Shown piece after piece: positions 6,297-50,886 of a stretch of 64,000 bases of DNA. The position numbers and the translations under genes were made by a program. The DNA lies in the NCBI GenBank assembly GCA_040830765.1, contig JBFOMH010000028.1, positions 1-64,000 on the forward strand, in the 5' to 3' direction. The stretch's first letter is position 1, and every line of letters begins with the position of its first letter. The stretch comes from Puniceicoccaceae bacterium. Its GTDB lineage: Bacteria; Verrucomicrobiota; Verrucomicrobiia; Opitutales; Oceanipulchritudinaceae. The notes under the pieces were generated by a model, which saw only the letters and a program-made list of their open reading frames with translations, was not told where the DNA came from and ran no database searches.

Positions 6297-9200
6297 ATGC
6301 TTGCGAAATATGGAAAACTGGTCTTTGGCCTGTGTGCTGTTTGTCTAATAGTCCCGCTGCAGGGGCAGAATGTGATTTTCATCGGTGATGCCGGTGGTGG
6401 GAACCACCGCAGTGAGGCGCGTGCAGTGGCGAGCCTGAATGGCGGAACGGATCTTTTGGTGGTGGGTGGTTCCCAGAGCGATTTGGGCTTTGAGCTGACG
6501 ACCTTCACGACCGGGGACGAATCGACTCCTCCTGAGTTATTTATCCATCCTCAGGCATTTGGCAGTCTACCCGGGACTGGCTTCCGGACCATTTCCGATA
6601 TTACTCCTGACGGTTCCCTTATTGTTGGCCGCCAATACGATGAGACCGGCGAGGTCCGAGCCTTTGTCAGTGGTCCCTTCGGGGAGGATTTCACCTGGAT
6701 GCCACACAGCCCGAATGCTGTCCTTTCCCGGGCAACGGGCATTTCGGATGACGGTTCGATCATTGTCGGTCAATTGAACGATTCCGTGGAGGGTCGGCGG
6801 GCGGTCTACTGGGACGCTGAACGGAACCTGAATTTTATTCCTCCAGTACCTGGGCACGAGTCCTTTGTCTGGGCCTATGATGTGTCGCCGGATGGCACGG
6901 TCATCGTTGGCTTTGCGGAGGAGTGGGATGAAAGCATTCAGGTCATCAGCCAGGTCGGCTTTGTCTGGACCGAAGCCGATGGTATCCAGATTCTGGATTC
7001 AGCATTGGGATTCACGGATGTCCTGACCCTCTCGGATGACGGAACCCTCGGCGGCGGGCGGATTTATGGTAACGAGGTGTCTTATCCGGCCTACTGGAGT
7101 CTTGCCGGCCGGAGACCAATCGTGCTGCCCGTTCCAGAAGGTTTTGAAGGTGGACAGGTGGACAGCTTCTCCGCCGATGGCACAGTGGCCACCGGATACC
7201 TTGTCGATTCCGATGAATCAGAGGGTCCGGTCTTCACTGGCGTCATGTGGGACCTTGCTGGGCACAATGCCTCCCTGTCGACCAGCAATCATACCCTCTA
7301 TCTGAAAGGGGATGGGACGGTTTGGGCGACGGGTTACAACCTCTACGGCCAGCTCGGCGACGGGACCAATGTCGATAAATCGACACCTTTTCAAATCCCT
7401 GGATTGACGGATGTCGTTTCCGTCACTGCAGGACTCCGCCATAGCTTGTTTGTGAAGGCTGATGGTACTGTCTTGGCTGCGGGATGGAATGCGGGTGGCC
7501 AACTCGGTGATGGCACAACTACGGACCGGTCCACTTTAGTCGAAGTGGTCGGCTTGACGGATGTCATTGCAACTGCAACAGCTGCGAACCATAGCCTCTT
7601 CCTCAAGAGCGATGGAACAGTCTGGGCTTCAGGATTCAATTTGAACGGTCAGCTTGGAGACGGGACAACGACAGACCGGTCCACTCCAGTTCAGATGACC
7701 GGCATTACGGATGTCGTGGCGATTGCAGCAGGATCCGGTCACAGCATGCTCTTAAAAAGTGATGGAACAGTCTGGGCCACGGGACGAAATCTCAATGGGC
7801 AATACGGGAATGGGACAACCACGGAGTCGTTGGTTCCGGTTGAGGTCGTTGGTCTCAGCGGTGTTGTTTCCATAGCCTGTGGAGGCAATCATACTTACTT
7901 CCTTATGGAAGATGGTACGGTCTGGGCCACGGGATTGAATTCTTTGGGCCAACTTGGGGATGGAACAGAAATTGATAAATCGAGCCCGGTGCAAGTCAGC
8001 GGTCTGAGTGACATCGTGGCCATCTCTGCAGCACCAAACTATGTCCATGGTCTATTTTTGAGAAGCGATAGGACTGCCTGGTCCACTGGTAATAATTTTG
8101 GAGGACAATTGGGTGATGGAACAACAGAAAACAAAAGCACGCCTGTGCAGGTCCTGGACGACGTTGTTGAGATCATTGCCGGGACCAATCACAGCACCTT
8201 TGTCAAACGGGACGGTTCCGTCTGGTCAACGGGCTTCAATGGATCGGGTCAGTTTGGCAATGGTTCCACTACAGATGCATTAATTCCCATTCGGGCAAAT
8301 CAATCCACGGTGCTCACCTTCTTCCAGCCATGGGCGATGCAGTATGGCTGTTCCTTTAATGGTGCCCATGTGCAGAGTGCATCCATTCTTGCGGACGGGG
8401 AGACGTTCTATGGGGAAGTCTTCTTCCCGGATACCGGTGCGGTGGAAGGCTATGTCGCCCAGATTGACCCGACCCCGACGGACCTGACCATCGTCGGGCG
8501 CCTGCCGTATCCGGATAACCGTACCCAGGACGGTGTCGGTGATTCGGTTTTTATCCGGGACATCGACCCGCTGGGGCGCCTTGCCGCCGGTCAGGGCAAT
8601 TTCCACGAAGGTGCGAAATCGATTTCCCTGCCCGTCTACTGGACTCCGGGGACCGGCTTGCGCGAATTTGCCCGGATGACCGACAATCCCAATCCGGATG
8701 AATGGAGCGGACGTTTTGGCCGGGTTTACGACGTCACCACCTGTGGCGACTTCATGGTCGGCCAAGGCTTTGGAGCCGAGACCTGGGGCTACGGGTTTAT
8801 GGCCAATGCCCAGGGCGAGACTGCCCGGCTGCCGGTCAACGAGATTTTTTCACCCATCGAAGGACAGATTATCCGGGAGGAGAGCCGCGCCTTCGCCATG
8901 TCTGATGGAGGAAACATCATTGTTGGTCAGGCCAATGCCAGGGGCCGTTCGACACCCAACCGGGGTGCCCGCTGGGACCAACTCGGCGAGGGACAGCTCC
9001 TTTCAATCGAGGGCGTGGATTCAGCGCTCCTTTCCTTCGCCACGGACATATCCGTCAACGGTTCGGTTGTGAATGGATTTGCTCTTTTGTCCGACGCCAT
9101 ATCACCGACCGGGTTTGTCTGGCGTCCGATTGTCTGGGAAGGGGATAGTCCCCGTGTGATGCCACTGTTGGAGGGATACACCAATGCGGATACCTGGTTC

Positions 9201-9956
9201 ATGTCGCACGATGGCGCAACAGTTGTGGGTAGCTTCTACAACCTCAACGAGCAAAACCAACCTGCCGGCCGTCAGGGATACCTGTGGAATCTTGCTGATG
9301 ACAGTTTTGATATGCTTGATTTGCCTGGAGGATGGACTGAGCCGGACCTGTTGAAACCCAACTTTGACGGCTCAATCGTGACCGGTATCGCCCGGGACGG
9401 GGAGGCAACATTGACCTTCGTCTGGGACCGGAATAGGGGAGTTTATGAGGTCAAGGACTACCTGGAAACCGTCTTGGGCTATACTGTCGGGCCCTATGAA
9501 ATTACACTGGCAAATCCCAACGACGAGGGCACCCATCTGGTGGGTCAGGTTGCGGGCAAGTATGGTGAGTTCGCCTTCTTCATGCCCCTGCCGGAAGAGC
9601 TGGTCCCCGCCGGGGCACGTTATCTCTGGCGTTCAGCTCCTGCACGCGAGGATGCCTACAAGAACATCGATTGGTTTGGCTGGCTGGCTGATTCCGGCAC
9701 CTACCCATGGGTGTATCACATCGAACATGGCTGGATCTACACCCAGGGCAGTGATCCAAAGAGCTTCGCGCTCTTTGATACCAGCCTCGATAGCTGGTGG
9801 TTGATTGATCGGAATGCCTATCCCTGGATGTTCAAGCTGGGTGCCAACAGCGGTTGGTATTATTACTACGCTCCCTTTGGAACGCCTGGCGAGCGGTTTT
9901 TCTACAATCCGGCCACCGGCGAGACCGGGCTGGAGGCAGATATTTTTCCAAACTGA
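6297..9956 (+). CDS. Large secreted protein: HAF-like beta-propellers, 7 RCC1/BLIP-II repeats and a Trp/Tyr-rich C-terminal domain
   Basis: Signal peptide; repeated A.GISDDGS.IVG blades; seven H..FLKSDGTVWATG.N..GQLGDGT repeats (~7260-8300); C-terminal WFGW...YPWVYHIEHGWIY. Confidence 0.85.
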   Translation: MLAKYGKLVFGLCAVCLIVPLQGQNVIFIGDAGGGNHRSEARAVASLNGGTDLLVVGGSQSDLGFELTTFTTGDESTPPELFIHPQAFGSLPGTGFRTISDITPDGSLIVGRQYDETGEVRAFVSGPFGEDFTWMPHSPNAVLSRATGISDDGSIIVGQLNDSVEGRRAVYWDAERNLNFIPPVPGHESFVWAYDVSPDGTVIVGFAEEWDESIQVISQVGFVWTEADGIQILDSALGFTDVLTLSDDGTLGGGRIYGNEVSYPAYWSLAGRRPIVLPVPEGFEGGQVDSFSADGTVATGYLVDSDESEGPVFTGVMWDLAGHNASLSTSNHTLYLKGDGTVWATGYNLYGQLGDGTNVDKSTPFQIPGLTDVVSVTAGLRHSLFVKADGTVLAAGWNAGGQLGDGTTTDRSTLVEVVGLTDVIATATAANHSLFLKSDGTVWASGFNLNGQLGDGTTTDRSTPVQMTGITDVVAIAAGSGHSMLLKSDGTVWATGRNLNGQYGNGTTTESLVPVEVVGLSGVVSIACGGNHTYFLMEDGTVWATGLNSLGQLGDGTEIDKSSPVQVSGLSDIVAISAAPNYVHGLFLRSDRTAWSTGNNFGGQLGDGTTENKSTPVQVLDDVVEIIAGTNHSTFVKRDGSVWSTGFNGSGQFGNGSTTDALIPIRANQSTVLTFFQPWAMQYGCSFNGAHVQSASILADGETFYGEVFFPDTGAVEGYVAQIDPTPTDLTIVGRLPYPDNRTQDGVGDSVFIRDIDPLGRLAAGQGNFHEGAKSISLPVYWTPGTGLREFARMTDNPNPDEWSGRFGRVYDVTTCGDFMVGQGFGAETWGYGFMANAQGETARLPVNEIFSPIEGQIIREESRAFAMSDGGNIIVGQANARGRSTPNRGARWDQLGEGQLLSIEGVDSALLSFATDISVNGSVVNGFALLSDAISPTGFVWRPIVWEGDSPRVMPLLEGYTNADTWFMSHDGATVVGSFYNLNEQNQPAGRQGYLWNLADDSFDMLDLPGGWTEPDLLKPNFDGSIVTGIARDGEATLTFVWDRNRGVYEVKDYLETVLGYTVGPYEITLANPNDEGTHLVGQVAGKYGEFAFFMPLPEELVPAGARYLWRSAPAREDAYKNIDWFGWLADSGTYPWVYHIEHGWIYTQGSDPKSFALFDTSLDSWWLIDRNAYPWMFKLGANSGWYYYYAPFGTPGERFFYNPATGETGLEADIFPN

Positions 9957-9959
9957 TCG

Positions 9960-11228
9960 TCAAATCGTCCACAGCCCGAGGGCGGGATTGCTGATGTAGA
10001 AAATCTCTTCCCCGTCGACCGTATTCCACCCGTCCTTCAGGGATGCGGGATCGTATTGGGCGACGGCTTCCGCGTAGGGCAGGTAGTTGAAACCGACTCC
10101 CTCGACCTCCTCGCGGGTGACACCGTCCCCCGGGCAGTAGGTGATGTTGAAGCGGCCGTCTGAGGTGCCGTGGATAAGGTGGGCGGCGGCGGAGAGGTTA
10201 TCCGCCAGCTCCTCGTTTTCCTCGACATCACGCAGGGTCTGGTCGGTCCCCCGGTAGCCGTACTTGCGAATGAGGCGGTCGATTTCCGGATCCTCCCCGA
10301 AGGTATGCAGCGCCGGGGCGAGGATGAACAGTTCGCCGTTGTCGGCCATTGCCTTACGGGTGCGGTAGACCGCCTTGTTGCCCAGCCAGGTGGAGGTGAA
10401 TTCCTCCGGATCCAGGTAGACGACACACTTCTGTAGCGGCTTTTTGAGGACATCGAGGTTGGCGGCTCGGCTCAAGGCACAGGCCTTGGCGAAGGTCGCC
10501 TGGTCATCCCCCGCATAGAGGCCCTTCATGACCAACGTATCCTGGTCCTTGCCGATGACGGTCAGGATAAAGTGCAAATTGACCAGTGGCCGGACAAACT
10601 GGTCGAAGCCCTCGTTGAGGGCCGCCCGGACCGGTGTATCCGTCTCGCCCATGATCCGCTCCATCCCGTAGACAGCCCCCAGGTAATGCGACTTGTTAAT
10701 GGTATCTCCCCCACCAACCCCGATCATGATATTCTTGGTGTAGTTGGCCATCCCGATAACCTCGTGGGGGACCACCTGCCCAATCGAGAGAACAAGGTCA
10801 TAGCCACCCTCGACCAGTTCCCGGTTGACTGCCATCTGCATCGGGAAGTCCAGCTTGCCCTCCGACAGATCACGGATGCGGCTGGCCGGGAGTTCACCCA
10901 GTACCTTGAGGGAATTGCGCCAGTCGTGGTGCAAGTAGGCCTCCAGCGGAATTTCCTTCCCGAACATCATGTGCAACTGCTCATCTGTCATCCGGAAGTG
11001 CGTTCCCAGCGCCGGCATGATCCGGACTTCCGCACGGTCCTTTAATTGCGCATAGAGATAGGCCGTAATTTCCCCGGCCCGCGAATTGAGGCGAGTGTGG
11101 TCCGGCGGAATGAGCAACACTTTGCCAGCCCGACCGGCCAGCTTCTCAATAATCTGGTCGAGACATCCCTCCAGTTGTTCCCTTTCAATGTGCCCCTCCG
11201 GGCCGCCTGCTGCAATGTGTGTGGTCAT
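9960..11228 (-). CDS. LarA-family (DUF2088) nickel-pincer racemase/epimerase, probably a sugar-acid 2-epimerase
   Basis: IPPDHTR, PALGTH, GQVVPHEVIGMAN..KN and GNKAVYRT motifs. Confidence 0.8.
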   Translation of the reverse strand: MTTHIAAGGPEGHIEREQLEGCLDQIIEKLAGRAGKVLLIPPDHTRLNSRAGEITAYLYAQLKDRAEVRIMPALGTHFRMTDEQLHMMFGKEIPLEAYLHHDWRNSLKVLGELPASRIRDLSEGKLDFPMQMAVNRELVEGGYDLVLSIGQVVPHEVIGMANYTKNIMIGVGGGDTINKSHYLGAVYGMERIMGETDTPVRAALNEGFDQFVRPLVNLHFILTVIGKDQDTLVMKGLYAGDDQATFAKACALSRAANLDVLKKPLQKCVVYLDPEEFTSTWLGNKAVYRTRKAMADNGELFILAPALHTFGEDPEIDRLIRKYGYRGTDQTLRDVEENEELADNLSAAAHLIHGTSDGRFNITYCPGDGVTREEVEGVGFNYLPYAEAVAQYDPASLKDGWNTVDGEEIFYISNPALGLWTI

Positions 11229-41364: not shown

Positions 41365-42480
41365 ATGCGGATCGACTGGTATGTGTTCAGGGAGTGGCTG
41401 AAGGTCTTTATCATGACCTTGTTCGTGCTGTTCGGGCTGCTCATCATCAGCGATCTGCAGGACAACTTGCCGGACCTGCTCGGGTTCGGGGCCAGCAATG
41501 CAGAGATTTTGCGTTACTATGCCATCAAGCTGCCTTCCTTCGTGCCCATTGTTGTTCCCATGGGGTTCATGGTCTCGCTGCTTTTCAGTCTCGGGCAGTT
41601 TCACCGGAATCACGAGATAACGGCCATGCGGGCGGCCGGATTCAGCCTCTTCCGGATTACCCGCAGCCTTTGGGCATCTGGCCTCGTGCTCACTGTCATC
41701 CTCTTCCAAATGAACGCCCGGATCATTCCCTGGTCGGTCGAGGAGGCCCGGCAGATCTGGAACGATTATGCCTACAGCAAGGCACTGCAGGAGGAGGCCA
41801 ATGAGGAAGTGGGCCTGCTCTACAATCTGACCTTCTTCAACCGTCGGGACGGCCGTCTGTGGTTCCTGAACCGCTTCAACGAGTACAACTACCGCGGGTT
41901 TGGCATCACCATCTCCGAATTGAATCCGGAAAACGGGCAGGAGCTGCGGCGCATTGCCGCCAACCGGGGCTACTATGATGACTTGAACGGTGGCTGGACC
42001 TTCAATGAGGGACGGGAGACAACCTTTGATGAAAGCAGTGGCGATCCTGTTCGCAGTTTGCCTTTTGACCAGTTGCACATGGCCGGGTTCACGGAGGATC
42101 CCGACTTGATGAAGGCCCTCGAAAAGCGTCCCAAGGACCTCTCCCTGAGCGAGCTCAAGACGGTGGTTGATTACCTTCGTCCAGCGGAGGATCCCCGCCT
42201 GGCCACTTATGCCGTGACCTTCTATGATCGGCTCTTCAGTCCAGTCAGCTGCCTGATCATCCTCGGACTGGCGATTCCTTTTTCGGTTACAGGGGTGAGG
42301 ACCAACCCATTTGTCGGAGTCAGTAAGGCGATGGGCCTGCTATTCCTTTATTACATCCTTCTCAATGTGGCCCAGTTTGCCGGGACCAGCGGGTTCAACC
42401 CGCTGTTGGCGGCTTCGTTGCCAAATGTCGCGGCTTTTGCCCTCATTGGATGGTACTTTATTAAACTGCAACATCCATGA
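41365..42480 (+). CDS. LptF/LptG family LPS export permease
   Basis: IDWYVFRE, NHEITAMRAAGFS; 3 TM + periplasmic domain + 3 TM. Confidence 0.9.
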   Translation: MRIDWYVFREWLKVFIMTLFVLFGLLIISDLQDNLPDLLGFGASNAEILRYYAIKLPSFVPIVVPMGFMVSLLFSLGQFHRNHEITAMRAAGFSLFRITRSLWASGLVLTVILFQMNARIIPWSVEEARQIWNDYAYSKALQEEANEEVGLLYNLTFFNRRDGRLWFLNRFNEYNYRGFGITISELNPENGQELRRIAANRGYYDDLNGGWTFNEGRETTFDESSGDPVRSLPFDQLHMAGFTEDPDLMKALEKRPKDLSLSELKTVVDYLRPAEDPRLATYAVTFYDRLFSPVSCLIILGLAIPFSVTGVRTNPFVGVSKAMGLLFLYYILLNVAQFAGTSGFNPLLAASLPNVAAFALIGWYFIKLQHP

Positions 42481-43631
42481 TGAAGCTTGTCTTGAAAAAG
42501 GAAGCCGCGCGGGCCCGTGTCCGCAATGGCCATCCGTGGCTTTTTGTGAACGAGGTCGAGGCGGTACCGGATGCCTCCTTTGATGGCAAGGCACTGGCCC
42601 TTGAGGATGCCCGTGGTCGTCATCTCGGTATGGGCATTGTCAATACACAATCCCAAATCCTCTGGCGGCGCTACAATAAGGACAAGGAGGCCTGGGGTCC
42701 TGAGTTCTGGGCCAAAGCTCTCGAGCGGGCAAACCACAACCGCGAGGAGGAACCCTTTCGTCGTCTGGTCTGGTCGGAAGCTGATGACCTTCCCGGTTTG
42801 GTTGTAGACCAATTCGGCGATGTCCTTGTTGTTCAGGCCCTGACCAAGGCAATTGATCTTGCGCTCAAGGAGTTGCTGCCACTTTTGCAGGAACAGTATT
42901 CCCCGCGGGAGATTCTTGTCCGTAACGATGCACCCAGTCGGCGGCGGGAGGGTCTTGAGCTGGAGAGCTACACTGTCAGCGGCAAGCCGCTACCGGCGTT
43001 CTGGGCGGAAATCTATAACGTGCATTATCACCTCGACCTCGACAAGGCACAGAAAACGGGATTCTACCTGGACCAGCGACAGGAACACTTCAAGGTGGCC
43101 ACCTTTGCTTCCGGATGGCGGGTTCTTGATGCCTTCTGCAACCAAGGTGCCTTTGCCATCAATTGTGCCCTCGCTGGCGCTCGGGAAGTCATTGCCATTG
43201 ACAGCTCAGCGGAGGCTATTGAACAGGGGCGGAAAAATGCTGCCAAAAACGATGTCTCCGTGGAATTCAGGGAGGAGAACGTCTTTGACTATTTCACTGC
43301 CAACCGGGAGGAGCGCTTTGACCTGGTTATCCTCGATCCACCCTCCTTTGCTCCCAACCGGCGATCGGTCAAGGGTGCCCTCAAGGGATACAAGGAGCTC
43401 CACGTTCGCGCATTCCGGTCGCTCAATGCCGGCGGCATTCTTGCTACCTATTGTTGCTCCCATCATGTCTCCCGGAGCCTTTTCCGGGAGGTCATTGAGC
43501 AAGCCGCGGCCGACACGCGGAGCAAGGTCCAGGTTCTTTACGAAACCGGCCAACCGATGGACCATCCGGTCCTGCTGAATTTTCCGGAATCGGAGTATCT
43601 CAAGGGATTTATCCTGAGAATGCAGGATTGA
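42477..43631 (+). CDS. rlmI: RlmI-like rRNA m5C SAM methyltransferase
   Basis: GHPW PUA start, SEADDLPGLVVD, QKTGFYLDQR, ILDPPSF and EYLKG. Confidence 0.85.
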   Translation: MMKLVLKKEAARARVRNGHPWLFVNEVEAVPDASFDGKALALEDARGRHLGMGIVNTQSQILWRRYNKDKEAWGPEFWAKALERANHNREEEPFRRLVWSEADDLPGLVVDQFGDVLVVQALTKAIDLALKELLPLLQEQYSPREILVRNDAPSRRREGLELESYTVSGKPLPAFWAEIYNVHYHLDLDKAQKTGFYLDQRQEHFKVATFASGWRVLDAFCNQGAFAINCALAGAREVIAIDSSAEAIEQGRKNAAKNDVSVEFREENVFDYFTANREERFDLVILDPPSFAPNRRSVKGALKGYKELHVRAFRSLNAGGILATYCCSHHVSRSLFREVIEQAAADTRSKVQVLYETGQPMDHPVLLNFPESEYLKGFILRMQD

Positions 43632-43633
43632 CC

Positions 43634-44539
43634 TTACCAGAAGAAGGTCATTACCCGGGGGTCCAGGTGTTTCTTTGAGCGTGACGGATAGAGGGTTCGC
43701 CACACCGTGGCGTAATTTTCCCATGGTCCCCGGATTTCGTTGTCCACCAATGGTTCCGGGCAAGTGTCATCAGGTGAAGGAACATCCATTTTCAATCGCT
43801 CCCTGAAGACGGCATGGCCGTAAGGGAATGCATAGTGCAAAAGCCGTCTTTCCAGATGATTGCCCAGGGCAGGGAGATCCGTCTCGCTGAAGCGGGGATT
43901 TCGCTTATTGAAAAACTCCAGCGCCACGATGGCCCGCTCCAGTTCAATGGTCGCCTTCCAGAGCGAATCCCTAACCTTTACCGCCGCGGCAGTGCCATAG
44001 CCCGTCCATCCGCAAGGGCCCATCCTCCAGCAGAGGACTACCGCAGCTTCGGAGATCGGGTTGTTGATCCGGACAGCCGAAAATCCAGGTACCTTAGTTT
44101 CCAATGGCTGATGCTCCAGGCAGCGATTCCACCACTGGACGAGGCAGTACCGTTCCTCGGCCTCAAGCCGCGCCCGTTCGCGGGCTGATCCCTTGAAGAG
44201 TCCAGGGAAGGCCGCAATGCCGCTTGTTGTGTCATCATCCTGGAACCCATGGGATGCGTGTTGGCCCTGCTGGCAGATATAGTGGAAGGCCCACCGTTCC
44301 AGTGCTTCCGAGATAGCCTTGTGCCGCGCTACCATTGGGGAGGCGTCGGTCCCGGTCCCGTCAGCGTTGGCAAAGACTTGGTTCTCCCCCTGCCTGAGGT
44401 TCAAGTACCGGGATAAGTAAGCGCTGGCCTGCTGGAGCTGTCTTCCCTGGATGGTGACAGGACCGTGCTCAAGGTACTCAATGGGGCCGCCATGGCAATT
44501 GAGGACTTTGCTGTATCGCAGGGGCGCAAGGCTCAACAT
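43634..44539 (-). CDS. Compact stand-alone YcaO-family protein
   Basis: Three YcaO-type ATP/Mg motifs: GTG..(A)..KAISEALER, TSGIAA...ARLEAEER, GYGTAA...ATIELER. GGAG RBS upstream. Confidence 0.75.
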   Translation of the reverse strand: MLSLAPLRYSKVLNCHGGPIEYLEHGPVTIQGRQLQQASAYLSRYLNLRQGENQVFANADGTGTDASPMVARHKAISEALERWAFHYICQQGQHASHGFQDDDTTSGIAAFPGLFKGSARERARLEAEERYCLVQWWNRCLEHQPLETKVPGFSAVRINNPISEAAVVLCWRMGPCGWTGYGTAAAVKVRDSLWKATIELERAIVALEFFNKRNPRFSETDLPALGNHLERRLLHYAFPYGHAVFRERLKMDVPSPDDTCPEPLVDNEIRGPWENYATVWRTLYPSRSKKHLDPRVMTFFW

Positions 44540-44587
44540 GAGGTGCTCCAGCCAGTTGATGAAAACATTCCTGTAGCGGACTGTCCG

Positions 44588-44773
44588 CTACTTGCGCTTG
44601 TTTGAACCGCAGGGCAGGGTCCCGAGTGCGGGCGAATCGCTGGAAGGATCGGGAATCAACCTGGACTCGCTTTCCAGTTCATCAAATGCCTCCGCAGCCT
44701 TGACGAACCCACAGCTTAAAAGCAATGTGGCTGCCACATGAAGAATGATTCTGGGTATGCGTATTCTGCTCAT
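44588..44773 (-). CDS. 61-aa peptide with signal peptide; candidate YcaO substrate (RiPP precursor)
   Basis: Arg-rich n-region, hydrophobic h-region, VKA/AEA cleavage sites, C-terminal GTLPCGS; fills the gap 48 nt upstream of ycaO on the same strand. Confidence 0.6.
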   Translation of the reverse strand: MSRIRIPRIILHVAATLLLSCGFVKAAEAFDELESESRLIPDPSSDSPALGTLPCGSNKRK

Positions 44774-44861
44774 GTGTTCAGGAATAATTCCGGTGCTACC
44801 TAAATTCGACTAAAGGACCTCCTTGAATTCAAGTACTTTTTTTCCTTTACATGGCTGGACG

Positions 44862-47800
44862 ATGCGGGCCCACTTGCTTTCGGTCTTCCTGGTTGCTGCG
44901 GTAGCTTCTCTCCTGGAGGCCTCCATGGAGCGGTTTTTCCACTACGGTGAGCCGCTGGTGCAGGATCTGGGTATTGATGGATCCAAAGAAGGGGGGTATA
45001 TTTGGAATATTGTCTGGGACGACCTGGGGGTGGCCTATCTTGGCCGGGATACCCTCTGGCGCTGGGATGGGACCAACATGAGGCAACTGGGACCGGATCA
45101 CCTGGTCGAACTCAAGGGAATGTGTTTCGATGCCCAAGGCAGGCTGTGGTTGGGAAGTTTCAATGAGATTGGGGTCTTCGATCCCCGTACCTTGAGGTAT
45201 GATTCCCGACTGGACTGGATTCCGCGGGAAAAACAGGCTTTCGGACAAGTATGGGACCTTCACCACGACGGGGAGTTCCTTTGGGTTGCCACGGACCATC
45301 AACTCTTCCGGGTCGGGGAAGACAGCTTCAGCGACTGGTCATTTCCCGGGGACCATCGGGTCATCTTCCACTTTCTTGAGTCAGGCACTTATGCGCACCA
45401 GGTTGGTGTCGGCCTTTGGCGATTGCAGGACAGTGAGATGCACTTGCTTTGTGATGATTCCCAACTGGCCGAACGCAGCGTCCTCTATCTTGAGGATCAG
45501 CCTGATGGAACGTTGATGGCCGTCTCCGGGAGTGGGGTGTTCTATTACCATGAGAATTATATACCATCACTAATTAAGAATCAGTTTCCGTCACATATTT
45601 CACTAAGTGGGGTATGTGAAATATCTAGAGATCATTGGCTTTTAGGTACCCTAAGTGATGGCATCTTCGAGTTAACCAAAGAGGGTCAGGAATTCTCGCT
45701 TAGGAAAAGCAAGTCTCAGAGAGAACAGATAAGTATAATCAAATTACTGACCGATCCCCACGGAGAACTATGGCTTGTTGATTTAGATTCTGTTCAGATC
45801 GTTGATTTTTCATTCCTAATAACTCTGCTTAAAGGACCGGAAGATTTCCCCTCAGGGACAATTCGAGACATCAGTTTAATAAAAAGTTCTTTAGTACTTG
45901 GAATGGATACTGGAGTCTTTGAATTTAAGTCTAAAGATCTCAAAAACAATTGGATTCAGCACACCGAAAATGAATCCAAAAAGACTGTCGCTTTTGATGG
46001 CGCGATATATTTTGATGACTACGATCGGTTGATGGTTCTCAAGGACGGGAACCCGGAAGTATTGGCGGAGTTTGACCGGGAGATCCGCACGTTCACCCTG
46101 ACCTCGCCGGACCGATTGGTTGTGGCCTTCAACGATCGGTTGGAGGCCTATCGCATCATCCCCGGTAGGGAATTGGAGCTGCTTGGGGAATACAGTACAT
46201 TGAACGGGCTCGTTAAGCTGGAAGCCGATGCTACTGGACGGGTCTGGGGGTGGTCTCACCGCACGCCATTGCTGGAGGTCGTTGCTGATGGAATGGAGTT
46301 GAAAGTACATCGGTACGACACCGTTTCGGGAAGGGACCTGTTCAGCGAGGAGCATCAATTTGCGATAACTTCCGTGGGTCCGGTTCTGGTCTTTCATGAC
46401 ACATTGGCGCGTTACGCTGCAGGAAAGGGAATCTGGGAAGTGACGCCCTTTGACCCTGGACTGGGGCGATTGCAGGCCGTGGATTTCCGGATGGAGGCGA
46501 ACAACCTGTCGGGCTGGCTGATCGTGCGGGATCCGATGACGGACAACAGCCTTCTTCTGGAAGTGAACTGGCCGGCAGACGGCGTAGTGGACTGGAGCAT
46601 CCTGCCCTGGCCTGCGATGGATGAGATTGGTCCGGTCATGGATTTTGAATATGTGGATGGTCCGGAACCATACTTTGTCTTTGGCGGCCTGCGGGGAATC
46701 CTCATTGCACCGGTCGCGGTGTCGGAGCGCATTCCTGCACCAGGTAAGCCGGTTATTTGGGAGGGGTTGGCCGGCATACAACCCGCTGGTGACCGGGAAA
46801 CGGAATTTGGTGCGGGCAATCTGCATTATTCCTTCAGTACCCCACGGGCCAGCTGGCACTATCCTGTGTGGTACCAGACGCGGATTAAGGGAATGGACCC
46901 TGACTGGACTCCCCCAAGTCCATTTGCCTTCAGGGATACCGGGCAACTGCTGGACGGCACGTTCGACTTTCAGGTACGGGCGGTAGATCCCTTTGGCCGG
47001 GTGGGCCCAATTGCCTCGGTCCGGTTGAAGGTTAATCCTCCCTGGAGCCGTACCGGATGGGCTTACCTCATTTACTTTGGCTGTATCTTGTTGCTGGTCG
47101 CATTTGGTGTTCGCTTCGCTATCCATCTGGAGCGCAACAAACAGCGCAAACTGGAGCGCCTCGTTGATGAAAGGACCCACGAATTGCGCCAGGCAAATGC
47201 CTTCAAGGACCTCTTGATTGCCAACTTGAGCCACGAAATCCGCAACCCGTTGAACGGAGTGATTGGCCTTATCCGTCAGTTGAAGGAGGATGCCCTGCCT
47301 CCTTTGAGCCATTTGAAGGCCCTTCGGCAGGCAGCGGACTACCTTCGCAACACAGTCGAGGGCGTACTGGACTTTTCCAAGATTCAATCGGGTCAGGTTG
47401 AGCTCAAGTTCAAGCCGGTCAATTTAAGACCTGTCCTCATGGGGCCCGTTGGTATCTACAGGTCCCAGGCTAAAGCAAAGGGGCTTGACCTTAAAGTCGA
47501 CTTTGAAGTCGCGGATGAGTTGGTTGTCGTTACGGACGAACAGAAGATACAGCAAATCATGGGTAATCTTGTTTCCAATGCGATCAAGTTCACCGAGGCG
47601 GGTACCGTATCGGTCGAGGTCCGGTTGGAAGTGGAGGAGCTGGAGAGGGGCAACTTGACTATATGCGTCATGGATACAGGTCGTGGCATAGCCCCTGAAG
47701 ACCATGACAAGATTTTCCAGGAATTCTACCAGAGCAAGGGACCCGCTCTAAAGACTCCCGGCACAGGTCTTGGTCTGGCACTAGTTCGGCAGTATGCGGA

Positions 47801-48689
47801 GCTCTTGCAGGGAACTGTCAGCCTGGAGTCCACATTAGGGGAAGGTTCCTCCTTTACGGTGTCGCTTCCGGTTTCCGTGGCCGCATTCGGATCTGACAAC
47901 GGTGAAGCAGACCTCCCCGGGGCAGCTTTGAACCTCTCTGTCCTGGTCATTGAGGATACCGATTACAACCGACTCTTTATGGAGGACTTGCTTGTCGAGC
48001 GCGGGTGCCGGGTTGACCTTGCCGAAGATGGAAATACCGGATTACAGATGGCGCTAAAAGGTCAGTATGACCTCATCTTCCTTGATTGGGAATTGCCAGG
48101 AATGAATGGTGTGGAGATTACCCGGGAGCTGCGGGCGAATCAGCAATTCGATCAATCCACACTGCTGGTGGGACTGACAGCCTTTGCCACGGAGGACAGG
48201 CGCCGGGCTGGACTGGAGGCGGGTATGAGTGCTTTCCTGGTCAAGCCGCTGGAACTTCGCGATCTTTACAGGGTCCTCGAGACAAGATACCCGGGTTTGA
48301 AGGATGTTATAAAGGGAGCTCTGGAATCCGAAGATACGCAGACAGGGGCAGGAAACAGCGGTGAGTCCTTGATCGCAGGCAGGGGACTCCTGGCTGAGAT
48401 GTCGGCTCACAAGGATTGGGACGACTTGAAGAACCGGTGGCTGGGAATTTTCAATGAGCACGTCCTCGAGGTTGCCCAGGCCATAGAAGGTGGCGACAGC
48501 GAGACCATTCGCCGCTACACCCACAAGCTGCTCGGGCATTTGCGCATGCTCCAAGCGGAACCCATCGCAGAACCCATCCAGCAGATGCTGGTTGCGGCTC
48601 ATGGAGGAGATATGGAGCGTATCTGCCGGCACTGGGCCACGTTCAACGGTCGGCTGGAGGCATTCCGTGAGGCTTACAGGAAATTGTGA
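44862..48689 (+). CDS. Hybrid sensor histidine kinase: periplasmic beta-propellers, Y_Y_Y, TM, HisKA, HATPase, REC, HPt
   Basis: GRLWLG blades, YQTRIKGMDPDW..FQVRA, PPWSRTGWAY + TM, SHEIRNPLNG, NLVSNAIKFT, DTGRGI, GTGLGL, FLDWELPGMNG and HKLLG. Confidence 0.93.
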   Translation: MRAHLLSVFLVAAVASLLEASMERFFHYGEPLVQDLGIDGSKEGGYIWNIVWDDLGVAYLGRDTLWRWDGTNMRQLGPDHLVELKGMCFDAQGRLWLGSFNEIGVFDPRTLRYDSRLDWIPREKQAFGQVWDLHHDGEFLWVATDHQLFRVGEDSFSDWSFPGDHRVIFHFLESGTYAHQVGVGLWRLQDSEMHLLCDDSQLAERSVLYLEDQPDGTLMAVSGSGVFYYHENYIPSLIKNQFPSHISLSGVCEISRDHWLLGTLSDGIFELTKEGQEFSLRKSKSQREQISIIKLLTDPHGELWLVDLDSVQIVDFSFLITLLKGPEDFPSGTIRDISLIKSSLVLGMDTGVFEFKSKDLKNNWIQHTENESKKTVAFDGAIYFDDYDRLMVLKDGNPEVLAEFDREIRTFTLTSPDRLVVAFNDRLEAYRIIPGRELELLGEYSTLNGLVKLEADATGRVWGWSHRTPLLEVVADGMELKVHRYDTVSGRDLFSEEHQFAITSVGPVLVFHDTLARYAAGKGIWEVTPFDPGLGRLQAVDFRMEANNLSGWLIVRDPMTDNSLLLEVNWPADGVVDWSILPWPAMDEIGPVMDFEYVDGPEPYFVFGGLRGILIAPVAVSERIPAPGKPVIWEGLAGIQPAGDRETEFGAGNLHYSFSTPRASWHYPVWYQTRIKGMDPDWTPPSPFAFRDTGQLLDGTFDFQVRAVDPFGRVGPIASVRLKVNPPWSRTGWAYLIYFGCILLLVAFGVRFAIHLERNKQRKLERLVDERTHELRQANAFKDLLIANLSHEIRNPLNGVIGLIRQLKEDALPPLSHLKALRQAADYLRNTVEGVLDFSKIQSGQVELKFKPVNLRPVLMGPVGIYRSQAKAKGLDLKVDFEVADELVVVTDEQKIQQIMGNLVSNAIKFTEAGTVSVEVRLEVEELERGNLTICVMDTGRGIAPEDHDKIFQEFYQSKGPALKTPGTGLGLALVRQYAELLQGTVSLESTLGEGSSFTVSLPVSVAAFGSDNGEADLPGAALNLSVLVIEDTDYNRLFMEDLLVERGCRVDLAEDGNTGLQMALKGQYDLIFLDWELPGMNGVEITRELRANQQFDQSTLLVGLTAFATEDRRRAGLEAGMSAFLVKPLELRDLYRVLETRYPGLKDVIKGALESEDTQTGAGNSGESLIAGRGLLAEMSAHKDWDDLKNRWLGIFNEHVLEVAQAIEGGDSETIRRYTHKLLGHLRMLQAEPIAEPIQQMLVAAHGGDMERICRHWATFNGRLEAFREAYRKL

Positions 48690-48692
48690 TCC

Positions 48693-49367
48693 TCAATCGT
48701 GTACATGGTAGGTGTCCTGCAGCCCCATGCTAGGAAAGGCGGGCTTCCAGAATCCACATTCGTTGGCGTAGCGAATAAGTTCTGGCGTACTGTGGACGTC
48801 CAGTTTGCGGAAAAGATTCCGGCGATGGGTTTGAACGGAGCTTTCACTGAGTCCGAGGCCTTCGCCGATTTCGCGGTCAGATAATCCGGATCCAATGAGG
48901 GTGAGAACCTCCTGTTCCCGCTTGGTAAGGATCTTCTGGAAAGCCTTCGGGTCCGTGCGCAATTGATTCAGGACGGCCTGGATACTGGGGGAATAGTATC
49001 GCTGGCGCGCAAGGACTCCCTCGATCGCCTGCCGTAGCACGTCAACGGAGGCCTCCTTCTTGTCGATGAACGCCGGAAGGTGCTGCTTGTTTACCTGGTA
49101 AACGGTCTTGGGATCGGTTTCCGCCGAAAGGGCGATGATACGTAGCTTTGGCATTACGGCCAGCAACCGCCTTGCAACATGGATACCGGACAGCTTTGGA
49201 ATCAGGATGTCGAGGATAACCAAATCTGGCTTCTCTCTCAAGATGAGCTCAAGGGCGGCTTCCCCATCCGTCGCGATACCGGCGATCTCAAATCCCATCT
49301 TGTCTCGCAACTGGTCAATCAGGAACTCCTGGAAAAGTATCTGGTCTTCAACGACAACCACCCTCAT
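48693..49367 (-). CDS. NarL/LuxR-family response regulator
   Basis: VVVED, ILDILIP, LTKREQEVL...EIGEGLGLSESSVQTHRRNL. Confidence 0.93.
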   Translation of the reverse strand: MRVVVVEDQILFQEFLIDQLRDKMGFEIAGIATDGEAALELILREKPDLVILDILIPKLSGIHVARRLLAVMPKLRIIALSAETDPKTVYQVNKQHLPAFIDKKEASVDVLRQAIEGVLARQRYYSPSIQAVLNQLRTDPKAFQKILTKREQEVLTLIGSGLSDREIGEGLGLSESSVQTHRRNLFRKLDVHSTPELIRYANECGFWKPAFPSMGLQDTYHVHD

Positions 49368-49410: not shown

Positions 49411-50886
49411 TTAATGGTCCCAGGGCATGCGAACGTCCTCACGGGTGAACGACCAGGGCTCGCTGATTTCCCACAGCTTCCCGGGATTGAGAATCCCGTT
49501 CGGATCAAGGGCCTCCTTGATGGCCCGCATGGCCCGGATTTCCGCTTCGGAATGTTGCAGCTGGAAGAAGGGAGACTTGGCCAGTCCAATCCCGTGCTCC
49601 CCGGAAATGGCCCCGCCCAGGTCGATGACTTTCTCCATCAGTTCCTGCAAGGCGGTGCGAGCCGTGGCGGAAACTTCCGCATCTGTTTCATTATACATGA
49701 TATGGACATGGAAATTGCCATCCGCGGCATGTCCGAAAGTCGGGGTGGGGAGGCCGGTTTGATGATGGATATCGTGCACAAATTGCAGCAGGTCGAGCTG
49801 GGCGTCAAAGGGCACCACAACATCCTCATTGAGCTTGCGGGTTCCGAGCTCAAACATGGCCTGGGAACAGGAACGACGTACTTTCCAGAGCAACTCAACG
49901 GTTTCCTCCTCAATGGCCGTGGTGTAGTCTCCCGTTCGATCGGCCACCAGGGCCGTTACGGCATCCAGTTGCTCGCGGACTTCGTTTGGACGACCATCCA
50001 CTTCAATGAGCAGAAGCGCCGCCTCTTTTCCGGACAGGCGGTATTTGTTGAGGCAATCAGGCAGGTCATCCAGAAGGTGGGGGGATTTGCGCTTCCAGAA
50101 TGAGAAAGTGCAGGCCACTGTCTGGGTATCGAGAAATTCAAGTGCGGAAGGAGTCTGGCCCACCCGAAGAAGCTCCTGCGAGCATTCGAGTGCCTCGCGG
50201 TCAGACCCGAAGACGGCCAGGCAGGTAGCGCTGGCGGGGGGACGGGGAATCAATTTGAGGACAGCCCCCGTTATGATCCCAAGGGTTCCTTCCGATCCAA
50301 TCCAGAGGTCCCGCAGGTTGTAACCCGCGGAAAACTTGCGCAGATTACCGGCCCAACGGACAAACTCCCCGGTGGGCAGGCATCCTTCAAGGGAAAGGAC
50401 GTAATCCCGGGTCACCCCGTACTTGGCCCCGCGCATGCCACCGGCGTTGGTGGCGATCGTCCCGCCGACCGTGGCGTAGGCCTTGGAGCCGGGGTCCGGC
50501 GGGTAGGCAAGATTGTGCCGGGCGGCGGCTTCATCCAGCTCGGCTAGGGTGACCCCTGGCTGGACATAGGCCATTCGGGCCACAGGATCGATGTGGAGCT
50601 GCTTCCAGCCAGACATGTCGAGCACCCATCCCCCTGGTGCAGGGGAGGTGGCCCCGGTGGTCGCTGATCCGGCCCCGCGGGTGGTCACGGCGATCCCATG
50701 GGAGTTGGCCAGGCGCAGAACGGTATCCACGGCCTCCTCATCCCGGGGCCGGATGCATGCCGAGGGCATCCGGCTGTAACGCAGGTTGTCCATGGAAACC
50801 GCATAGAGAACCTCCGGGTCGGTAATGACCTGGCTGGTATCGAGGGCGGCCAGAAGGGCGTTGAGGGCTTTGTTGTCGGGATCCAT
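49411..50886 (-). CDS. FAD-linked oxidase (GlcD/D-lactate dehydrogenase family)
   Basis: PPDPGS, GGTIATNAGG, GSEGTLGII, GHAADGNFH, SGEHGIG and DPNGILNPGK. Confidence 0.9.
   Translation of the reverse strand: MDPDNKALNALLAALDTSQVITDPEVLYAVSMDNLRYSRMPSACIRPRDEEAVDTVLRLANSHGIAVTTRGAGSATTGATSPAPGGWVLDMSGWKQLHIDPVARMAYVQPGVTLAELDEAAARHNLAYPPDPGSKAYATVGGTIATNAGGMRGAKYGVTRDYVLSLEGCLPTGEFVRWAGNLRKFSAGYNLRDLWIGSEGTLGIITGAVLKLIPRPPASATCLAVFGSDREALECSQELLRVGQTPSALEFLDTQTVACTFSFWKRKSPHLLDDLPDCLNKYRLSGKEAALLLIEVDGRPNEVREQLDAVTALVADRTGDYTTAIEEETVELLWKVRRSCSQAMFELGTRKLNEDVVVPFDAQLDLLQFVHDIHHQTGLPTPTFGHAADGNFHVHIMYNETDAEVSATARTALQELMEKVIDLGGAISGEHGIGLAKSPFFQLQHSEAEIRAMRAIKEALDPNGILNPGKLWEISEPWSFTREDVRMPWDH

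Follow-up and report, generated by a model that had tools for sequence, protein, structure and literature searches.

A minimal YcaO-like enzyme, a precursor-like peptide, a hybrid kinase, and a LuxR-type regulator form a conserved four-gene module in part of the Opitutales

The stretch of DNA analyzed here (the window) comprises 64,000 nucleotides (nt) of a Puniceicoccaceae bacterium (assembly GCA_040830765.1, contig JBFOMH010000028.1, positions 1 to 64,000). Between positions 43634 and 49367 it carries a four-gene cassette, in which an earlier reading made from the letters alone (the sequence-only reading) recognized a secreted peptide precursor, a stand-alone YcaO, a periplasmic-sensor hybrid kinase, and a NarL/LuxR regulator. 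The YcaO-like gene (43634-44539, minus strand) is an open reading frame (ORF) of 301 amino acids (aa), and the precursor peptide ORF (44588-44773, minus strand; 61 aa) lies 48 nt upstream of it. A divergent spacer of 88 nt (44774-44861), counted from the peptide ATG to the kinase ATG, holds a candidate operator at 44819-44836 and leads to the hybrid sensor histidine kinase gene (44862-48689, plus strand). This ORF, supported by Pfam matches, encodes 1275 aa from its ATG; an alternative upstream start, a TTG at 44823, would give 1288 aa. The gene for a NarL/LuxR-family response regulator (48693-49367, minus strand; 224 aa) is convergent with the kinase gene and lies 3 nt from the kinase stop. 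All ORFs were found where the sequence-only reading had placed them, with its spacings of 48, 88, and 3 nt, and the placement between housekeeping genes also agreed with the Pfam matches of the flanks, a PUA/SAM methyltransferase at 42477-43631 and a FAD-linked oxidase at 49411-50886, both of housekeeping type.

As judged from gene neighborhoods, the four genes make up a module that part of the Opitutales (Verrucomicrobiota) has conserved. Linkage was counted in the best 80 of 166 confirmed relative loci from species-representative genomes; 76 loci with at least 200 nt upstream were used for the peptide, 69 with more than 1500 nt for the kinase, and 53 with more than 5500 nt for the regulator. 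A small ORF was present just upstream of the YcaO gene in 74/76 loci (72 found by the sequence pattern described below, plus L031 and L036). The divergent kinase was found upstream in 67/69 loci, being missing in L006 and L064, and the LuxR regulator lay beyond the kinase in all 53 loci. The window's own flanking genes recurred in only 1 to 3 of the 80 loci, and the flanks differed between loci. Clustering of the neighboring ORFs detected no other widely shared gene, and no exporter, protease, dehydrogenase, immunity gene, or leader-binding (E1-like, Ocin-ThiF, RRE) partner was conserved beside the unit. The constancy of the kinase and regulator, the variable flanks, and the absence of any other shared neighbor indicate that the four genes travel as a unit, and a chance arrangement is excluded because the whole unit is conserved in about 70 other species. 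The sequence-only reading had proposed a check of whether homologues of this YcaO co-occur with a Cys-bearing small ORF, the kinase, and the regulator, and they do, with a core Cys in 70 of the 76 peptides; its remark that the cassette lacks an ABC exporter or protease likewise agrees with the clustering of neighbors.

One protein search returned 560 homologues of the 301-aa protein at an E value of 0.001 or better, about 295 to 302 aa long. Among the 120 homologues listed, nearly all had 279 to 337 aa and, where named, belonged to Opitutaceae, Puniceicoccaceae, or Verrucomicrobia. Many relatives carry a precomputed PF02624 match. An exhaustive search of cluster representatives gave 398 clusters (50% identity) at an E value of 0.001 or better, a family large enough for mining, and 156 of these clusters matched at 1e-30 or better. 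Longer, fused YcaO forms were absent at an E value of 0.001 or better among 4384 candidates, which is weak evidence. In an even sample of the Opitutales, the family was present in 25/201 genomes and was concentrated in few families (7/9, 6/9, and 5/9), indicating that the minimal YcaO family is an accessory trait. A housekeeping role was rejected on the same distribution. Canonical YcaOs scoring above the Pfam cutoff were rare in a Verrucomicrobiota sample (3/151 genomes; L083 to L085), and the minimal form was commoner within the Opitutales. In the ESM Atlas, a 283-aa YcaO cluster of Bdellovibrionota was the third nearest to the 301-aa protein, with a score of 0.95.

The description of the 301-aa protein as a stand-alone YcaO was borne out by its fold and was not reproduced by the sequence libraries. 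The protein missed the cutoff of the Pfam YcaO family PF02624 (12.2 versus 25.7 bits; E value of 0.11, residues 63-90 only), and no match was obtained in NCBIfam or in searches of PDB sequences, with the single sequence or with a profile. The AlphaFold model, built with 32 homologues, had a mean predicted local distance difference test score (pLDDT) of 91.6, and its top Foldseek matches were YcaO enzymes (best 6ci7, E value of 2.7e-7). With VIA-align, the best Z score was 17.4 to McbD (6gos_D; 263 aligned residues, root mean square deviation of 4.2), followed among further YcaOs by M. kandleri YcaO (16.2), LynD (15.8), 7u58 (14.6), M. jannaschii (14.4), and Escherichia coli YcaO (12.4); unrelated chains scored 5.7 or less against the model. 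The modeled structure is clearly a minimal stand-alone YcaO fold. It corresponds to the YcaO domain alone, because the VIA-align alignments span residues 1-301, and it is about 60 to 140 residues shorter than the matched YcaO domains (360 to 440 aa). The protein has no signal peptide and ends in F-F-F-W.

Residues that are invariant or nearly so in the 32 homologues are S77, E78, E81, R82, E126, E129, R130, W136, W137, and E199. Three strand-helix units are kept, S77-E78-x-x-E81-R82, E126-A-x-E129-R130, and E199-x-x-R202, in which the acidic residues and E199/R202 are invariant or at least 90% conserved. In known YcaOs, acidic helix motifs of the E-x-x-E-R type hold ATP and Mg. When the family was aligned by hhalign with three Pfam-validated YcaOs of the same phylum, E78/E81 fell on the invariant E76/E79 and E199/R202 on E176/R180, at probabilities of only 57% and 37%. 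In this weak alignment, residues 107-130 and 181-203 form two similar strand-helix units that are both candidates for the canonical second motif. These conserved positions suggest that the nucleotide (ATP/Mg) site is likely conserved in the 301-aa enzyme.

The product of the 61-aa ORF has a basic N terminus, a hydrophobic stretch, a likely signal peptidase site between V-K-A and A, a junction A-E-A-F-D-E, and a tail ending in L-P-C-G-S-N-K-R-K. No family for this product exists in Pfam or NCBIfam. A pattern consisting of a hydrophobic stretch followed by A-A-E-x-L/F-D-P, written after the data had been seen, finds the ORF in 72/76 loci. The four misses are L031 and L036, where the peptide has a slightly different junction, L010, where it bears a signal but not the motif, and L006, where there is none. 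The gap from the peptide stop to the YcaO start has a median of 20 nt and is 50 nt or less in 65/72 loci, and some genes overlap. In the alignment of 55 peptides, D31 is invariant (55/55), and M1, S15, G22, A27, and C55 are at least 90% conserved; identity to the window peptide is about 17 to 35%, with 82% in the nearest relative (L001). Across these loci, the 61-aa ORF stands as a real gene that forms an operon-like pair with the minimal YcaO. The small ORF is of the ribosomal-peptide precursor type, because a conserved leader, a hypervariable core, and multicore forms are hallmarks of such precursors.

The N-terminal part of the peptide has the three parts of a signal peptide. A K or R occurs within the first nine residues in 47/55 sequences, the hydrophobic stretch ends at G22, and positions 24 and 26, just before A27, are small (A/T/V/S in 46/55 and A in 42/55, respectively). 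On these features the N terminus is moderately likely to be a Sec signal peptide. A lipoprotein reading was rejected, since C21 occurs in the hydrophobic stretch in only 5/55 sequences.

Among the 76 tails, a core Cys is present in 70, Pro-Cys in 50, and a Cys within the last 15 residues in 66; C-x-x-x-C occurs in 33 and C-x-x-C in 11. In the window's genus, the tail keeps L/M-P-C-G/S. Several precursors have repeated tail units, four in L071 (6697-6984), three in L080 (4088-4342), and two in L011 (6764-6985), L040 (4098-4322), L059 (6769-6981), L061 (2770-3015), and L010 (6809-6979), which suggests that several short peptides may be cut from one precursor. One such unit, Y-D-G-G-N-G-N-T-A-C-A-I, is present four times. 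In L002, L003, L005, and L007, two tandem small ORFs with the same leader precede the YcaO gene; the first has a C-terminal Cys (e.g., G-L-P-C-I-I-E-H), and the second has a Gly/Asp-rich tail without Cys. The peptides of L008 and L009 also lack Cys.

The kinase was described in the sequence-only reading as a periplasmic-sensor hybrid with the order HisKA-HATPase-REC-HPt, paired with a NarL/LuxR regulator, and the Pfam and profile results agree with this. HisKA, HATPase_c, and Response_reg matched above the cutoffs, and Hpt (19.5 versus 24.6 bits) and Reg_prop (18.2 versus 20.4 bits) matched below them. From the N terminus, the order is a signal or transmembrane segment, a periplasmic double propeller with a Y_Y_Y-like end, a transmembrane segment, HisKA, HATPase, a receiver, and HPt. 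The periplasmic sensor domain (44922-47051, plus strand; residues 21-730 from the ATG) was delimited by homologue alignment and profile match. A profile of 55 such sensor domains matched 3v9f (E value of 1.1e-47), 4a2l (4.1e-47), and 3ott (1.9e-41), and this match to the double propellers of solved Bacteroides hybrid sensors indicates that the propeller predicted in the kinase is real. Residues invariant among the 55 full-length kinase homologues include H791, D1075, and H1221, which by their positions in HisKA, the receiver, and HPt are probably the three phosphorelay sites. The regulator has Response_reg and a GerE helix-turn-helix domain in Pfam.

The candidate operator in the spacer (44819-44836) reads GTACTTGAA-TTCAAGGAG and has at its core a perfect palindrome of 12 bp, CTTGAATTCAAG (44822-44833), whose center lies 54 nt ahead of the start codon of the peptide gene. 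The nearest relative shares GTACTTGAA-TTCAAGGAG, with the center also at 54 nt. Counting of k-mers in the 200 nt upstream of the peptide genes gave an 18-bp perfect palindrome, CTACCGGAA-TTCCGGTAG (the clade-A palindrome). When up to four mismatches are allowed, 19/55 loci have it within 200 nt upstream, and in 17 loci its center is 55 to 57 nt before the ATG. The density of the 18-bp palindrome was 21 sites per 11,000 bp upstream versus 3 per 729,434 bp elsewhere in the loci. Other clades carry ATACCTTTT-AAAAGGTAG at about 77 to 79 nt (eight loci), with the same outer TAC...GTA arms. A best-palindrome score of at least 8/9 was reached by 24/57 upstream regions versus 10/1140 shuffles, and the centers cluster at 54 to 57 nt. 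Two heptamers starting with TAC and separated by two bases, as seen here, are the layout of NarL-family sites. The simplest reading, which is considered likely, is that the cassette's own LuxR-type regulator binds this candidate operator and controls the peptide-ycaO operon.

In the window's genome, the exact 14-mer of the candidate operator occurs nowhere else, and the four sites with one mismatch all lie inside long ORFs; in the regulon search of this genome, the only intergenic site was the cassette's own. A regulon search in five other genomes gave 36, 2, 2, 14, and 3 sites, versus 1, 0, 0, 0, and 0 for a control with the reversed pattern. These counts define no clean regulon, because the large ones come partly from an integron-like array. 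This array, in a large Opitutaceae-type genome (L095, genome G331, contig C8, 1-14991; also L096 to L098), contains 26 to 27 copies of a repeat of about 155 nt whose ends resemble attC (GCCTAAC...GTTAGGC), spaced 400 to 1850 nt apart with small ORFs between. Six cassettes of the array stretch in L095 carry the perfect 18-bp palindrome, and many of the genome's 36 copies are in the array. In L062, a second perfect 18-bp palindrome (9950-9967) lies downstream of the cassette, before a gene for a REC-PAS-HisKA-HATPase-REC hybrid kinase. As judged from such sites, the targets of the regulator may in some species include further signaling proteins.

Contigs identical to the window were found in RNA libraries from two studies; one contributed two metatranscriptome runs, and the other contributed two runs whose RNA status was guessed. 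Single contigs at 44219-44787 and 44463-44770 (runs X1 and X3) cover the whole peptide ORF and the 5' part of ycaO, and one from run X2 (44233-44731) covers the 5' part of ycaO and stops inside the peptide ORF. The kinase contigs begin at 44872, 44929, and 44977, and none of the four runs covers 44788-44871. This pattern fits, as a hint, divergent transcription from the spacer.

A second set is present in the same genome on contig C3 (locus L082, 4137-9632) and consists of a LuxR regulator, a 1256-aa hybrid kinase, a peptide, and a YcaO paralogue. The peptide (8427-8594; 55 aa) has a signal-type N terminus and a C-terminal Cys and lacks the L/F-D-P junction. The YcaO paralogue (8652-9632) is 32% identical to that of the window and scores 23.8 bits against Pfam YcaO. 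The divergent arrangement is kept; in this set, one strand encodes first the kinase and then the regulator.

The cassette changes faster than its surroundings. Compared at the DNA level with the nearest relative, L001, which has the same synteny, the flanks are 85 to 94% identical, except for part of the FAD-oxidase gene (78 to 81%), versus 69 to 81% for the cassette. In two other genomes of the genus with the cassette at the same place, the flank proteins are 69 to 80% identical and the cassette proteins 41 to 62%, a divergence that fits fast diversification. Within the sensor, the 600 nt at 45477-46076 (kinase residues about 206 to 405) have only 47 to 54% nucleotide identity to L001, versus 69 to 77% for the remainder of the cassette, and the GC fraction at 45500-45999 is 0.39. 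The hypervariable low-GC segment, defined by its identity to the nearest relative (45612-45911, plus strand; residues 251-350), is 18 to 20% identical to L001 at the protein level without a change in length, versus 76 to 90% in the neighboring segments and 54 to 90% in the rest of the domain. By these comparisons it looks like a swapped-in segment.

As a whole, the locus is best explained, with fair confidence, as a conserved pair of YcaO and peptide that its own two-component system controls. According to the excerpts of PMC13063428, YcaO enzymes use ATP to activate a backbone amide; the nucleophile determines whether a thiazoline, an oxazoline, an amidine, or a thioamide results, and some of the enzymes cut peptides. 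The YcaO of the cassette would likewise work in the cytoplasm and spend ATP on activating an amide of the tail backbone. The likeliest chemistry, which is probable, would be formation of a thiazoline by cyclization of the Cys onto the carbonyl of the residue before it, usually Pro, as indicated by the near-universal tail Cys, mostly after Pro. The product would stay an azoline because no FMN dehydrogenase is linked. TfuA (PF07812), the usual partner in thioamidation, was not found in the window's genome (96.9% complete) at an E value of 0.01 or better, and the control genome was recovered; a thioamide is therefore less likely. TfuA-independent thioamidation exists. The A-A-E-x-L/F-D-P junction is probably the recognition element, since no separate leader-binding partner is encoded.

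If the N terminus acts as the Sec signal peptide that it resembles, the modified peptide would be released to the periplasm after cleavage near A26|A27, a step that is somewhat favored. The hybrid kinase would pass phosphate through a His-Asp-His relay to the LuxR-type regulator, which would bind the palindrome centered 54 nt ahead of the peptide start codon and so control peptide-ycaO transcription, with the kinase gene as a possible further target; this regulation step as a whole is judged rather probable. The single most likely role for the peptide, put forward tentatively, is that it acts back on the propeller sensor of its own kinase, forming a loop in which it is a self-made signal or a feedback modulator. 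The points for such a loop are that the four genes stay together, that whole sets are duplicated, that immunity and export genes are absent, and that the peptide and sensor would share the periplasm. In its full form, the closed circuit would comprise a YcaO heterocycle at the Pro-Cys of a Sec-exported peptide, the processed peptide as a specific ligand of the propeller, and LuxR feedback on the operon, a combination that is rather doubtful. Under it, the paralogous sets would be private channels, with the hypervariable tail and sensor segment setting specificity.

Several results weigh against this picture. Partial Mantel tests were made with 54 of the 55 loci (one row had no regulator match), and because the tails align poorly they are a weak test either way. 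No link between core and sensor beyond ancestry was detected when YcaO distance was controlled (r = 0.05, P = 0.2), and none between core and kinase core when the sensor was controlled (r = 0.02, P = 0.39). In the same tests, core and YcaO did co-vary weakly when sensor distance was controlled (r = 0.12, P = 0.02). Although the sensors of the window and L001 differ sharply, their peptides are 82% identical, so the sensor change does not follow the peptide. The Sec assignment rests on sequence features only, and the ATP/Mg site rests on motif resemblance, because the profile-profile alignment to canonical YcaOs is weak. Pfam, NCBIfam, and PDB sequence searches all fail to recognize the 301-aa protein as a YcaO. 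Since 6/76 peptides have no core Cys, the chemistry may be broader than Cys. The clade-A palindrome is not exclusive to the module, given the 14 and 36 copies in two large genomes. DNA may also be present in RNA libraries, so the contigs show presence and are not proof of transcription, its ends, or its levels.

The main alternative, likewise tentative, has the kinase responding to something other than the peptide, which would then be output alone. In a more specific version, which is possible but doubtful, an outside cue such as an oligosaccharide would induce a periplasmic modified-peptide effector, either a metal- or redox-active Cys/thiazoline peptide or an antagonist. The sensor profile does match glycan-sensing hybrid two-component sensors, but the conserved neighborhood of the unit includes no gene for carbohydrate-active or uptake proteins. 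Bufferins offer a precedent as Sec-signal ribosomal peptides with modified Cys that bind copper in the periplasm, as described in the excerpts of PMC11626156. The paired-Cys motifs of the tails (C-x-x-x-C in 33/76 and C-x-x-C in 11/76) are consistent with such a function, whereas the hypervariability of the tails, many of which, including the window's, have one Cys, is a poor fit to a metal site. A regulator with one target, the peptide operon, would fit the cassette-only operator in the window's genome, and an output-only peptide would fit the lack of detected co-variation between core and sensor. An antibiotic role would leave the absence of an immunity or export gene to be explained, and the duplication of whole sets with their own sensors also argues against a mere output.

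A full pheromone, in which a diffusible YcaO-modified peptide would be exported by Sec and sensed by the propeller in a density-dependent manner, as in quorum sensing of the agr or ComQXPA type, is unlikely. In its favor, precursor, modifier, kinase, and regulator are kept together in about 70 species, whole sets are duplicated within one genome, and immunity and export genes are absent. Peptide and sensor domain would share a compartment, the regulator-type candidate operator before the precursor gene would permit autoinduction, and the cassette diverges faster than its flanks within the genus (41 to 62% versus 69 to 80% amino acid identity). However, Sec release would leave a product about 35 residues long in the periplasm of a diderm cell unless it were cut down or carried across the outer membrane, and the unit holds no conserved gene for peptide trimming or outer membrane passage. 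The co-variation of core and sensor beyond ancestry was not found, and no downstream regulon is visible in the window's genome because the operator was found at the cassette only, which also counts against this explanation.

MgrB is a small partner of PhoQ, and this relationship is the model for a third explanation. That the small protein is no YcaO substrate but instead partners the kinase independently, in the membrane or periplasm, with the YcaO modifying another protein (or part of the kinase or regulator), would suit the lack of a leader-binding partner, the 6/76 peptides without core Cys, and the existence of stand-alone YcaOs that act on folded proteins, such as E. coli YcaO, which thioamidates uL16 (PMC13063428, in excerpt), but it is very improbable given that the small ORF lies directly upstream of the YcaO gene in 74/76 loci with a median gap of 20 nt, that the conserved leader and the variable, repeated tails are precursor features, that core and YcaO co-vary weakly after sensor control (r = 0.12, P = 0.02), and that E. 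coli YcaO, as far as the same excerpts go, has no nearby small ORF.

Compared with the azoline-forming YcaO systems (McbBCD, LynD/TruD, and the linear azol(in)e peptides), the module has the same enzyme fold, with McbD and LynD among the best matches, and an adjacent small precursor with a conserved leader and a variable, Cys-bearing core. Cyanobactin precursors carry several cores, as do some precursors here. Unlike in those systems, the enzyme is only about 300 aa and below the Pfam threshold; no E1-like, Ocin-ThiF, or RRE partner, FMN dehydrogenase, protease, or ABC exporter is conserved with it; the leader looks like a Sec signal peptide; and the unit is tied to a two-component system. The agr (AgrD/B/C/A) and ComQXPA systems have a precursor, a modifying enzyme, a kinase, and a regulator in one locus. 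They resemble the module in layout only, with a precursor, a modifier, a membrane kinase, and a response regulator together in a locus that outpaces its flanks. In Pfam, no module protein is homologous to the agr or Com proteins. The modifier here is a cytoplasmic, ATP-using YcaO rather than a membrane peptidase or prenyl transferase, export would be by Sec to a diderm periplasm, and the sensor is a 700-residue double propeller for which peptide sensing is only proposed. The hybrid two-component sensors of Bacteroides (BT4663 type; 4a2l/4a2m, 3v9f, and 3ott) share the periplasmic sensor architecture followed by a transmembrane segment, HisKA, HATPase, and a receiver. Those sensors have a fused AraC-type DNA-binding domain and lie within polysaccharide utilization loci, whereas the module kinase ends in HPt, works with a separate LuxR-type regulator, and is linked with a peptide-YcaO pair.

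Stand-alone YcaOs with protein substrates (that of E. coli on uL16 and that of methanogens on methyl-coenzyme M reductase) likewise have no fused or adjacent leader-binding partner, and those of M. kandleri and M. jannaschii are close in structure (Z scores of 16.2 and 14.4). They make thioamides without an adjacent small ORF, as far as the excerpts of PMC13063428 go, whereas the module enzyme nearly always has a precursor-like ORF. Precursors with a Sec signal exist but are rare among bacterial ribosomal peptides, bufferins being the example given in the excerpts of PMC11626156. There, too, a Sec-type signal replaces a dedicated exporter, and Cys is converted in the cytoplasm before export to give a periplasmic product (PMC11626156, in excerpt); in the module, this conversion is inferred. 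The module enzyme is a YcaO and not an MNIO of the DUF692/DUF2063 type, neither of which is in the cassette, and the tails are short and hypervariable, versus a conserved folded domain of 60 to 70 aa in bufferins. The module would be regulated by a dedicated propeller hybrid kinase and a LuxR-type regulator.

Full-text searches of the literature and searches of curated families gave no description of the four-gene module, in line with the remark of the sequence-only reading that such a system is not known to be described in Verrucomicrobiota. The interpretation given by that reading is partly supported: the module is real, conserved, and undescribed, and it has the appearance of a YcaO and its peptide controlled by a two-component system of their own. 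The known YcaOs belong to antibiotic-type peptide clusters and a few protein-modifying cases; here, in about 70 species, a YcaO is bound to a Sec-type precursor and its own two-component system. If the proposed chemistry is true, the enzyme would be a minimal scaffold for unaided substrate recognition by a YcaO and would join the bufferin MNIO enzymes as the second family known to feed modified Cys peptides to the periplasm via Sec. If the peptide is the ligand of the kinase, the module would be a peptide-signaling design undescribed for diderm bacteria and would add a ligand class for propeller-type sensors beyond glycan sensing. At least one locus (L011) belongs to a Horticoccus genome with an isolate-type record, which may bring experiments within reach.

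Some loci carry an additional signaling gene after the YcaO gene. A cytoplasmic PAS hybrid kinase was its immediate neighbor in 11/70 loci, and a small HATPase-only protein followed it in 8 loci; examples are L002 (2525-4273), L012 (4571-5416), and L062 (7885-9843). These trailing genes hint at a longer phosphorelay in some clades.

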